Positions 7,580 through 8,893 of a stretch of DNA of 15,647 bases are shown one piece after another. Numbering within the stretch: the stretch's first letter is position 1; the number at the start of each line of letters is the position of its first letter. Made by a program: the position numbers and the translations under genes. Origin of the DNA: a virus. Lineage: Duplodnaviria; Heunggongvirae; Uroviricota; Caudoviricetes. Under the pieces are notes generated by a model. The model was not told where the DNA came from and did not search any database. It was given only the letters and a program-made list of their open reading frames with translations. The stretch lies in the IMG/VR virus record IMGVR_UViG_2671180567_000005. One strand, 5' to 3'.

Positions 7580-8893
7580 ATGGCAGTAAAGATTTCAGGT
7601 GTGCTGAAAGACGGCACAGGAAAACCAATACAGAACTGCACCATTCAACTGAAAGCCAGACGTAACAGCACCACGGTGGTGGTGAACACGGTGGCCTCTG
7701 AAAATCCGGATGAGGCAGGGCGTTACAGCATGGACGTCGAGTATGGTCAGTACAGCGTCACTCTGTTGGTGGAGGGATTCCCTCCATCACATGCCGGGAC
7801 CATCACCGTGTATGAAGATTCTCAACCGGGGACGCTGAATGCTTTTCTCGGTGCCATGTCGGAGGATGACGTCCGGCCGGAGGCAATGCGTCGTTTTGAA
7901 CTGATGGTGGAAGAAGCGGCGCGTCACGCAGAGGAGGCGAAGAAGAATGCCGGAGAGGCGGAGACATCAGCGAGGAATGCCGGCATATCAGCCAGTCAGG
8001 CAGAAGAGAGCGCTGCAAATGCTGACACTTCAGCAGGGGATGCATCGGAGTCAGCCCGGCAGGCGGCAGAAAGTGCAGCCGCTGCAAAGCAGTCAGAGGA
8101 GGCGTCCTCGTCCTCGGCCTCTGCGGCCGCTCAAAAAGCCAGTGAGTCATCACAAAGTGCAGCAGATGCTGAATTGTCAAGAAAGACGGCAGAAAGTGCA
8201 GCCGGTAATGCAGCCAGGGATGCAACGACCGCAACAGAAAAAGCCCGGGAGTCAGCAGAAAGCGCACAGTCAGCGGAACAAAGCAGGATAGCGGCGGAAG
8301 AGGCCGTAAACCGAATCCCCACCGTGGTGGGACCTCCCGGGCCAAAGGGGGAACAGGGGCCCGCGGGTCCTCAGGGGCCGAAGGGTGATAAGGGAGAGCG
8401 CGGTGACACCGGCCCTGTCGGGGCAACCGGCGAACGGGGACCGGCAGGTGATGCTGGTCCGGCAGGCCCGCAGGGGCCGAAAGGTGACAGGGGAGAGCGG
8501 GGAGAGACCGGTCTGACGGGAAATGCAGGTCCACAGGGTCCAAAGGGAGACACCGGGGCAGCAGGCCCGGCAGGCCCACAGGGACCGAAAGGAGAAACAG
8601 GTGCGGCTGGCCCGGTGGGGGCAACCGGACCTCAGGGACCGAAGGGCGACCCGGGGGAGACACAAATCCGTTTTCGTCTGGGGCCGGCGAGCATTATTGA
8701 GACAAACAGCAATGGCTGGTTCCCGGGTACAGATGGTGCGCTCATCACCGGACTGACCTTTCTTGACCCCAAAGATGCCACACAGGTTCAGGGGCTGTTT
8801 CAGCATTTGCAGGTCAGGTTTGGTGACGGGCCGTGGCAGGATGTTAAGGGGCTGGATGAAGTGGGCAGTGATACAGGCAGAACAGGAGAATGA
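7580..8893 (+). CDS. stf: side tail fibre protein (lambda Stf-like N-terminus) with collagen-like triple-helix region, 437 aa
   Basis: ATG 7580 (ORF-track start 7574 is a GTG two codons upstream). N-terminus MAVKISGVLKDGTGKPIQNCTIQLKARRNSTTVVVNTV matches the Stf N-terminal anchor as I recall it. Followed by an Ala/Ser/Glu-rich low-complexity segment, then 37 uninterrupted Gly-X-Y triplets, then a ~75-aa C-terminal tip. Confidence 0.85.
   Translation: MAVKISGVLKDGTGKPIQNCTIQLKARRNSTTVVVNTVASENPDEAGRYSMDVEYGQYSVTLLVEGFPPSHAGTITVYEDSQPGTLNAFLGAMSEDDVRPEAMRRFELMVEEAARHAEEAKKNAGEAETSARNAGISASQAEESAANADTSAGDASESARQAAESAAAAKQSEEASSSSASAAAQKASESSQSAADAELSRKTAESAAGNAARDATTATEKARESAESAQSAEQSRIAAEEAVNRIPTVVGPPGPKGEQGPAGPQGPKGDKGERGDTGPVGATGERGPAGDAGPAGPQGPKGDRGERGETGLTGNAGPQGPKGDTGAAGPAGPQGPKGETGAAGPVGATGPQGPKGDPGETQIRFRLGPASIIETNSNGWFPGTDGALITGLTFLDPKDATQVQGLFQHLQVRFGDGPWQDVKGLDEVGSDTGRTGE
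8330..8662 (+). repeat. collagen-like Gly-X-Y coding repeat (37 triplets) within stf
   Basis: Counted directly: GPP GPK GEQ GPA GPQ GPK GDK GER GDT GPV GAT GER GPA GDA GPA GPQ GPK GDR GER GET GLT GNA GPQ GPK GDT GAA GPA GPQ GPK GET GAA GPV GAT GPQ GPK GDP GET. GC-rich and stop-free on the opposite strand, which explains the long antisense ORFs. Confidence 0.9.

Follow-up and report, generated by a model that had tools for sequence, protein, structure and literature searches.

The analysed window is a stretch of 15,647 nucleotides that comprises only the tail end of a prophage. The stf gene directly follows the tail genes L, K, I, J, and lom, with the order J-lom-stf as in phage lambda. All of these genes, together with stf and a downstream open reading frame of 89 codons (ORF89), are present at full length. 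The stf gene is a single intact reading frame of 437 codons extending from the ATG at position 7580 to the TGA at 8891-8893; the list of open reading frames places the start at a GTG (position 7574) two codons upstream, whereas RefSeq uses the ATG in a genome that is 99.5% identical. The encoded protein begins with an N-terminal domain of the lambda Stf type, continues with a helix rich in Ala, Ser, and Glu and with 37 Gly-X-Y triplets, and ends in a tip of 76 amino acids. All four parts that an earlier note on this DNA had named (anchor, Ala/Ser/Glu-rich segment, collagen, and short tip) were thus found. The features of the locus are:

3347..6823, + strand: J, central tail fibre or tip attachment protein, 1158 amino acids (list of open reading frames; RefSeq annotation of the 99.5% identical genome)
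6892..7515, + strand: lom, Ail/Lom outer-membrane beta-barrel protein, upstream neighbour as in lambda (PF06316, E 1e-51; RefSeq, 99.5% identical locus)
7542..7563, + strand: terminator-like hairpin with T-run between lom and stf (consensus match only)
7580..7858, + strand: collar (attachment) domain, Stf residues 1-93 (N-terminal part of PfN/PF08400; 91% identity to PDB 9e7m chain Ta)
7877..8317, + strand: Ala-rich heptad coiled coil, designated PCoil, Stf residues 100-246 (21 unbroken heptads)
8318..8329, + strand: hinge or junction PTVV, Stf residues 247-250 (the heptad register stops here and the Gly-X-Y run begins at residue 251)
8330..8662, + strand: collagen triple-helix block, Stf residues 251-361 (37 uninterrupted Gly-X-Y triplets in a single run)
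8663..8893, + strand: PfC tip with RLGP motif, Stf residues 362-437 plus stop codon (PF06820)
8895..9164, + strand: ORF89, free-standing paralogue of the PfC tip (PF06820 match; 37% identity to the Stf tip)

We conclude, with a probability of about 0.9, that stf encodes an intact side tail fibre of the EPclA type, belonging to a lambda-like (long-tailed) prophage of E. coli. This architecture is already known, a point that the earlier note missed: it was published in 2012 by Ghosh et al., who characterised EPclA experimentally by CD, ultracentrifugation, and electron microscopy (PMC3368898). The finding is real but ordinary and carries little weight as a discovery; many phage records and hundreds of complete genomes already carry an annotation of the gene. 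A near-full-length copy of stf is present in 693 of 5426 complete E. coli genomes, with up to 18 matching places per genome. Together with the downstream reading frame, stf is 96.5-98% identical at the DNA level to the best-matching records of Stx and lambdoid phages, and at least 80% of the stf-ORF89 pair is covered in 135 phage records, among them VT1-Sakai, phage 2851, and the inducible phage Lambda_2B8. The exact 437-residue sequence was absent from the protein collection searched; WP_000268803.1 differs from it in one residue (A88D).

The conserved N-terminal attachment region claimed in the earlier note is borne out at two levels. Residues 1-93 share 91% sequence identity with gpStfN of Ur-lambda (chain Ta of PDB 9e7m), 12 copies of which encircle the gpV/gpM junction as a collar (PMC12617516), and residues 1-153 share 74% identity with lambda orf-401, the alignment ending at residue 153. 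In Pfam, phage_tail_N (PF08400) matches residues 1-133 with model positions 1-133 of 134 (E 4.4e-68). In the PCoil, alanine shows a sharp periodicity of 3.5 residues and occupies the fourth and seventh place of every heptad; the segment 134-250 (117 residues) contains 32% Ala, 20% Ser, and 13% Glu, and only 6% Leu, Val, and Ile combined. AlphaFold2 run on full-length Stf without an alignment predicted a helix at residues 95-245 (pLDDT 70-84), the remainder of this model being unusable (mean pLDDT 53). In electron micrographs of EPclA, the two stalk segments are joined by a hinge (PMC3368898).

The Gly-X-Y block was counted with a regular expression as one run of exactly 37 triplets, the number given before. 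Proline occupies 18 of the 37 X positions, and the Pfam Collagen family (PF01391) matches with an E value of 3.4e-18. Because glycine makes up only about 9% of Stf outside this run, we infer that the run cannot have arisen by chance. A collagen block adjoining type III effector genes might also belong to a surface adhesin or virulence factor of the lysogen, comparable to streptococcal Scl1 and Scl2, rather than to a virion component, and NCBIfam indeed returned weak matches to SclB, Lcl, and SclA. These are confined to the Gly-X-Y block and far below the curated cut-offs (NF038329 and NF038330, for Scl1/Scl2: 78.7 bits against 325 and 69.9 against 400). In addition, the N-terminus is a phage collar domain, neither a signal peptide nor a motif for cell-wall anchoring was obvious in the translation on inspection by eye, and stf is located in the late tail operon behind J and lom, with no sigma-70-like promoter found near it and a GC content that fits the phage module and not the low-GC effector cargo. 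The adhesin reading is accordingly very improbable. No Rfam family was detected in the window, and the terminator-like hairpin between lom and stf would presumably be read through by the antiterminated late operon, by analogy with lambda.

The tip carries a match to Phage_fiber_C (PF06820) at residues 363-426 that spans the whole model (positions 1-64 of 64; E 3.5e-36). This bears on whether the 437 residues represent the truncated remnant of a longer conserved fibre, that is, a lambda-type stf cut by a recent nonsense mutation or frameshift. The product is much shorter than lambda Stf, and frameshifted alleles do exist in the family (P0010/P0011, P0054, and P0055, and the entries marked 'EPclA*' in PMC3368898). 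Nevertheless, the match to PF06820 extends over the complete model, the same C-terminal end (...GRTGE) occurs in 77 of the 120 listed homologues, and in-frame readthrough past the stop meets further stops after 17 codons. The next reading frame lies in another frame with its own Shine-Dalgarno sequence, and a recombinant protein of the 437-residue length folds as a trimer (PMC3368898). The stop is native, and since it is conserved, we regard truncation as refuted; the recent nonsense mutation at 8891-8893 that the earlier note had named as refuting evidence did not materialise on account of the complete domain, the shared C-terminus, and the early readthrough stops. The note was correct that lambda Stf is the longer protein: it has 774 residues when intact and appears in the reference lambda record as two parts, orf-401 and orf-314. 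Its description of the present fibre as "shortened" is not upheld, as the distal part of lambda Stf has been exchanged for a collagen and PfC module and not cut off.

The predicted variation in triplet number among related prophages was confirmed by allele comparison: the 120 listed homologues have 4-38 triplets, in agreement with Tables 2-3 of PMC3368898, and coil variants are shorter by 28, 41, or 63 residues. The collagen DNA contains six copies of a 23-nt motif encoding GPQGPKGD/E, spaced at multiples of 9, and a tandem repeat of 45 nt occupies positions 8525-8615. Repeat families D1 and D2 lie at 7990-8274 and 8366-8649, respectively. When imperfect direct repeats of 18-46 nt with at least 80% identity were counted as flanking, 13 of the 16 length (deletion) classes proved to be flanked in the window DNA by such repeats at exactly the deletion spacing, whereas random in-frame deletions satisfied the same definition in 1.3% (coil) and 6.3% (collagen) of cases. 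Like the architecture, the homology, and the repeat structure, this match between allele lengths and repeat spacings was observed directly. Fibre length would change when imperfect direct repeats in the coil and collagen DNA recombine unequally or give rise to slippage, and whole distal modules may be traded among the many co-resident lambdoid prophages. The mapping of repeats to breakpoints offers a concrete mechanism for length variation, and the polymorphism of about 4 to 38 triplets provides a natural series with which to examine whether the reach of the fibre is adapted to the thickness of O-antigen or capsule.

The variation in tip identity that had been expected is seen only in part. 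S74-type tips do occur in Shigella and E. coli relatives, but within the EPclA group the tip varies less than the expectation implied, the 33 distinct tips being clearly polymorphic at only about 7 sites, a degree of conservation in PfC that is unusual in a receptor-binding tip. An AlphaFold2 model of the tip from an alignment of 27 sequences was all-beta at low confidence (pLDDT 59.8); Foldseek with this model found no counterpart in the PDB (best E 4.6), and a sequence search against the PDB gave no match better than E 0.15. An exhaustive HMMER search with PfC yielded only 48 cluster representatives, mostly fragments, and weak summed matches in proteins with tandem Ig-like (Big_7) repeats. 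As each matching stretch scores only 3-17 bits, an Ig-like fold is treated as a hint from sequence and not as a result.

Downstream, ORF89 occupies the position of tfa in lambda. Its ATG lies 1 nt past the stf stop in a different frame and is preceded at 6 nt by AGGAG, and ORF89 appears to be translationally coupled to stf. It has a 27-residue N-terminal extension with a conserved LCGCGK, matches phrog_576 over 89/89 residues, occurs with its exact sequence on 89 contigs, and shows purifying selection (dN/dS 0.26 against the C. rodentium copy). The reading frame has already been noted in the literature. With its conservation, apparent coupling, phage-like GC content, and dN/dS of about 0.26, ORF89 is compatible, instead of with junk or a silent recombination cassette, with a working partner of the fibre, which might cap or stack on the Stf tip as its own trimer or mix into it, acting as the true distal adhesin or as an assembly regulator; by analogy, it may fill the slot of Tfa or of gp38-type proteins in other phages. 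We consider such a role doubtful, and the dispensability of the Sp5 homologue ORF68 for plaque formation and lysogenisation (PMC5155283) speaks against an essential one.

A related proposal holds that PfC serves solely as a knob for trimerisation and registration, with the host being recognised by another component, for example ORF89 attached to the tip in the manner of T2 gp38 on gp37. It draws on the properties of ORF89 just described, on the strong conservation of PfC across prophages of many serotypes, and on the experimental evidence that PfC is a trimerisation module which renucleates the triple helix (PMC3368898). Against this, recombinant EPclA folds without ORF89 (PMC3368898), the Sp5 homologue is non-essential, and ORF89, being as conserved as PfC, is no better candidate for a variable adhesin. 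We judge this division of labour unlikely and retain PfC as the presumed contact point, although the lateral fibres of Lambda_2B8 are reported not to bind BamA.

Two further ideas about ORF89 were rejected. A programmed stf-ORF89 fusion was discarded, the 494-residue proteins P0010/P0011 being ordinary frameshift mutants; a frameshift signal was likewise not found by Mondal et al. Tip swapping from ORF89 as a 'reservoir' has no support because the sole collagen-ORF89 chimera (P0185) begins at base 4 of a 3.3-kb draft contig, and its halves are two separate pieces over about 850 bp in all 12 complete genomes listed.

Many lambdoid prophages of O157 strains are defective. This prophage could likewise be defective and build particles no longer, in which case its stf would be intact but idle, surviving only as recently inherited DNA on which other lambdoid prophages in the cell can draw for recombination. 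Decay is seen in the adjacent cargo, with nleC truncated and nleH frameshifted (two effector pseudogenes) and tfa reduced to a C-terminal remnant about 1.8 kb beyond ORF89, and recombination partners are ample because up to 18 matching places exist per genome. Conversely, every tail ORF in the window is full length, the allele is one residue away from a database copy, and the same gene layout is found in an inducible phage. Idleness of the gene is possible, though on the doubtful side, and it would concern present-day use and not the encoded product.

For the EPclA-type fibre favoured here, the trimeric state, the collagen and coiled-coil conformation, the dumbbell shape, and the collar attachment are taken from published work on near-identical proteins. 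Three Stf chains would form one fibre, whose three collar domains (residues 1-93) would plug into the 12-membered collar at the junction of tail tube and tail tip; with geometry and number extrapolated from Ur-lambda, a virion would carry four fibres. A short linker would be followed by a trimeric coiled coil of 21 heptads with an alanine core and an estimated length of about 22 nm, and, after the PTVV hinge, by a collagen triple helix of 37 triplets, for which about 32 nm is estimated. The helix would be stabilised by proline in the X position and by charged residues instead of hydroxyproline. Each chain would end in a small beta-rich PfC knob, which would trimerise and set the register, the triple helix zipping up from there. 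We infer that PfC binds the receptor on the host surface and that the side fibre speeds and broadens reversible adsorption before J commits the phage. Fibres of this kind are carried by the phages through which genes for Shiga toxin and type III effectors spread from one E. coli strain to another.

The closest known system is EPclA itself (ECs2717; ECs0844 of Sp3; Z0982 of CP-933K), which has the same order PfN-PCoil-Col-PfC at the same locus behind J and lom and differs from the Stf analysed here by allelic substitutions only. A length of 437 residues with a PCoil of 116 and a collagen block of 111 is recorded for CP-933K, Sp3, and at least seven other O157 prophages (PMC3368898, Table 2), and the stf-ORF89 stretch of VT1-Sakai/Sp15 shares 97.3% DNA identity. 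The marks of EPclA proteins are all found in Stf, namely PF08400, a heptad PCoil poor in L/V/I, a single uninterrupted collagen run, PF06820, and a location in a lambdoid tail region. Experiments on ECs2717, which is of the same length and architecture, revealed a homotrimer with a collagen triple helix (CD signature, Tm 42 °C) and an alpha-helical coiled coil, forming a hinged dumbbell of about 50 nm (PMC3368898).

With Ur-lambda Stf (P03764; 9e7m, PMC12617516), the protein shares the collar, the J-lom-stf locus, and the start of a proximal Ala/Ser-rich trimeric coil. The lambda coil extends to about residue 393, and beyond it come a hinge, a distal rod resembling gp37, and a domain that binds OmpC and depends on Tfa as chaperone, whereas in the window Stf everything beyond about residue 250 is collagen and PfC, with no match to PF03406 (Pf2 repeats) or another distal-fibre family in Pfam at E <= 0.01. 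Directly downstream, lambda encodes Tfa; here the 89-residue PfC paralogue takes this place and an intact tfa is absent. Lambda-based DNA delivery vectors have been engineered through swaps of Stf distal modules at just such junctions.

EPclB (933W L0121/Z1483, Sp5 ORF67/ECs1228, phi24B gp61) shares PfN, PCoil, collagen, and PfC, followed by an 89-residue PfC reading frame, but it has 645 residues with two collagen blocks parted by a Pf2 repeat. It is mounted on the podovirus tail of short-tailed Stx phages, as six fibres on adaptor rings and not on a lambda-type collar; immuno-EM placed it at the tail end in Sp5, and in phi24B it forms trimeric lateral fibres. Streptococcus Scl1/Scl2 and Bacillus BclA likewise possess a collagen triple helix that lacks hydroxyproline and starts from a globular domain nucleating the trimer, but they are proteins of the cell surface, carry signals for secretion and anchoring, and are unrelated outside the Gly-X-Y block. 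Finally, EPclD of Shigella and E. coli (SbBS512_E1096) has the same PfN and 116-residue PCoil and a collagen block of 9-38 triplets, but its tip is an S74 or intramolecular-chaperone type domain (PF13884) in place of PfC.

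A lambdoid Escherichia coli prophage carries the fibre gene stf in its tail end. The closest DNA match is E. coli strain RM14723 (99.5%), whose RefSeq annotation gives the order tail genes, sodC (opposite strand), J, lom, stf and an ORF of 89 aa, the product of which is named 'tail fiber C-terminal domain-containing protein', followed by nleB2, nleC (truncated), tfa (C-terminal remnant), nleH (frameshifted), nleF, and the chromosomal zinT. The fibre protein, Stf, is one residue (A88D) apart from the RM14723 protein WP_000268803.1. The GC content is 0.55-0.71 within the fibre gene and 0.34-0.42 past 9165; ORF89, the 89-aa ORF directly downstream of stf, has a value of 0.52 and groups with the phage module.

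Features of the locus (window coordinates)
2686-3213, minus strand: sodC (Cu/Zn superoxide dismutase), between tail assembly gene I and J, so annotated in the 99% identical RM14723 locus
6842-6861 (after J) and 7542-7563 (just before stf), plus strand: GC-rich hairpins with T-runs flanking lom, terminator-like consensus matches only
7580-8893, plus strand: stf, single ORF of 437 codons, ATG to TGA
7803-8663 and 8270-9178, minus strand: antisense ORFs of 286 and 302 aa crossing the fibre gene
7990-8274, plus strand: 33-nt imperfect direct repeats in the coil, five copies
8366-8649, plus strand: 23-nt GPQGPKGD/E imperfect direct repeats in the collagen, six copies, spacings multiples of 9
stf collagen DNA, plus strand: 45-nt tandem repeat
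8895-9164, plus strand: ORF89, starting 1 nt past the stf stop
9165-13400, plus strand: low-GC type III effector cargo, directly 3' of the fibre module
9341-10321, plus strand: nleB2, intact
10355-10645, plus strand: nleC, truncated to 96 codons
about 10689-10799, plus strand: tfa C-terminal remnant
within 9165-13400, plus strand: nleH, frameshifted
11929-12498, plus strand: nleF

The same pattern of stf, ORF, effector, tfa remnant, and effector is carried by phage Lambda_2B8. Codon composition (Ala/Ser/Glu and Gly-Pro) is the simplest explanation for the antisense ORFs, of which the 302-aa one has no Pfam match; in lambda, an annotated antisense ORF of a comparable kind, orf206b, lies over orf-401. 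No Rfam families were found in the window and no promoter-like sites near stf. When compared with the RM14723 locus at a fixed offset in ungapped 500-nt blocks, the first ~1 kb (1-1000) has ~25% identity, a figure that a register-shifting indel could also give, and the rest is 99% identical, with a drop to 88-94% at 5501-6500 in J. These two regions may reflect mosaic exchange in the tail region or, for 1-1000, an indel.

The N-terminal domain of Stf (PfN; PF08400 in Pfam, prophage tail fibre N-terminal; residues 1-133, E 4e-68) is separated from the collagen block by 117 aa composed of 32% Ala, 20% Ser, and 13% Glu, with just 6% Leu+Val+Ile. Residues 100-246 display a sharp 3.5-residue periodicity with Ala at the fourth and seventh place in 21 consecutive heptads, a long helix is predicted across this region by AlphaFold2, and the segment is probably an alanine-core trimeric coiled coil, with PTVV at its junction with the collagen helix. 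A pattern count gave one Gly-X-Y run only, of exactly 37 uninterrupted triplets (residues 251-361), which is spanned by the collagen domain PF01391; Pro occupies 18 of the 37 X positions, and about one quarter of the X/Y residues are charged. In the tip (PfC; PF06820, prophage tail fibre C-terminus), residues 363-426 match model positions 1-64 of 64 (E 3.5e-36). Because ORF, triplet count, Pfam domains, and composition all match, the description in the earlier note (N-terminal region, Ala/Ser/Glu segment, 37 triplets, and tip) is accurate in all particulars. PfC is a tiny family, with 48 representatives in a search of 1.84 billion proteins, and its similarity to tandem Ig-like repeat proteins is weak and arises only when hits are summed; no solved structure of PfC was found and no confident model obtained.

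That stf is a truncated gene, with its stop at 8891-8893 being a recent nonsense mutation, is ruled out: the tip matches its model through to the last position, 77 of the 120 listed homologues terminate at the same ...GRTGE, in-frame reading beyond the TGA stops after 17 codons, and ORF89 lies in a different frame with its own AGGAG. 'Shortened', the term previously applied relative to lambda Stf, is also the wrong word, as the distal part has been replaced, not cut. Residues 1-153 are 74% identical to lambda orf-401, and the window Stf retains the collar domain and the beginning of the coiled coil, whereas the remainder of lambda Stf is swapped for other sequence; Pfam detects no Pf2 repeats in the window Stf, and the RM14723 RefSeq annotation has no intact tfa downstream of stf.

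The proposal that triplet number varies among related prophages was borne out by the suggested comparison of alleles, in which 120 homologues contain 4-38 triplets. Their collagen starts at residue 188, 210, 224, or 251, corresponding to coils shorter by 63, 41, or 28 aa, and their tips are PfC or S74-type domains, consistent with Tables 2-3 of PMC3368898. Tip identity, also expected to vary, thus does so between these types, but within EPclA, a previously defined fibre type, the tip is very conserved (33 distinct tips, ~7 clearly polymorphic sites). The gap of each allele was mapped onto the window DNA and flanking repeats were sought at the gap spacing. Repeats of 18-46 nt with at least 80% identity flank 13 of 16 gap classes at exactly that spacing, including all three coil deletions (84, 123, and 189 nt); further spacings equal to deletion lengths are 45, 99, 108, 162, and 261 nt, among others. 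Since random in-frame deletions are so flanked in 1.3% (coil) and 6.3% (collagen) of cases, unequal recombination or slippage between these repeats accounts for the length series. The coil deletion of 41 aa, not being a multiple of seven, departs slightly from the 'multiples of seven' rule for the coil in PMC3368898.

ORF89 is a free-standing PfC paralogue, with 37% identity to the Stf tip, a retained RLGP motif, and 27 extra residues at its N-terminus that include a conserved LCGCGK. That the gene is genuine and conserved is indicated by its end-to-end match to phrog_576, the occurrence of its exact sequence on 89 contigs (its cluster has 1266 members), its presence in E. coli, E. albertii, and C. 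rodentium, its persistence beside a fibre gene even where, as in one C. rodentium remnant, that gene has lost coil and collagen, and a dN/dS of 0.26 against the copy in that remnant. In this prophage remnant (FN543502.1; 5479-6237 of the locus), the 166-aa PfN-PfC gene without coil or collagen is still followed by a 78-aa PfC ORF, and a near-identical locus has an annotated NleG-family gene directly after this pair. The Sp5 homologue, ORF68, is non-essential and was suggested to be a reservoir for tip variation; no frameshift signal was found there (Mondal et al. 2016). Tip swapping from ORF89 is unsupported. The sole collagen-ORF89 chimera found, a 95-aa predicted protein (P0185; 4-291) joining collagen triplets straight to an ORF89-type PfC at a shared GPA, begins at the edge of draft contig JAYDZQ010000147.1, and in all 12 complete genomes listed its junction is absent, the halves being two separate pieces spanning ~850 bp; the chimera probably arose as an assembly artefact or through a rare deletion. 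Any novelty left in the locus lies in ORF89 alone.

In Ur-lambda, Stf residues 1-94 form a six-stranded sheet plus helix, 12 Stf copies form a collar round the gpV/gpM junction, from which one trimeric coiled coil per three collar domains emerges via flexible linkers, giving four fibres per virion (PMC12617516). The N-terminal attachment region is conserved, as the earlier note held: residues 1-93 of the window Stf are 91% identical to the solved gpStfN (9e7m), and the same attachment is therefore expected from the sequence. The collar domains of three chains would join the tail in this way and continue into a trimeric coiled-coil stalk. By textbook geometry (0.1485 nm per residue for coil, 0.286 nm for collagen), the coiled coil would measure ~22 nm and the 111-residue collagen helix ~32 nm, a computed total that fits the 50-55 nm length of EPclA in electron micrographs (PMC3368898). 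X-position Pro and charged residues have been invoked for collagen stability without hydroxyproline (PMC3368898). PfC, shown to be a trimerisation module in ECs2717, would nucleate and register the triple helix, and presumably binds a surface structure. The related Sp5 and phi24B fibres are lateral fibres located at the tail, and BamA is reportedly not recognised by those of Lambda_2B8.

The type of fibre represented by Stf is already known and experimentally characterised. DNA covering stf and ORF89 shares 96.5-98% identity with the phage records that match it best, and 135 records contain at least 80% of the stretch; among them are VT1-Sakai, phage 2851, JLK-2012, and the inducible Lambda_2B8, whose layout, J-lom-stf (437 aa)-small ORF-effector-tfa remnant, is that of the window. 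Of 5426 complete E. coli genomes, 693 carry a near-full-length stf copy, and a single genome can have as many as 18 matching places. EPclA is defined as PfN-PCoil-Col-PfC, PCoil being the Ala-rich coiled coil and Col the collagen block, and is carried by CP-933K, M, O, R, U, V, and P and by Sp3, 4, 9, 10, 14, and 15 (Ghosh et al. 2012, PMC3368898). The expressed Sakai copy, ECs2717, is a trimer with a collagen CD signature, melting at 42 C and immediate refolding, contains an alpha-helical trimeric coiled coil nearly without Leu, Val, or Ile, is trimerised by both PCoil and PfC, and has the shape of a dumbbell with a hinge, about 50-55 nm in length (PMC3368898). In the prophages listed, EPclA has 437 aa with a PCoil of 116 aa and a collagen of 111 aa (PMC3368898), and the window Stf has exactly these dimensions.
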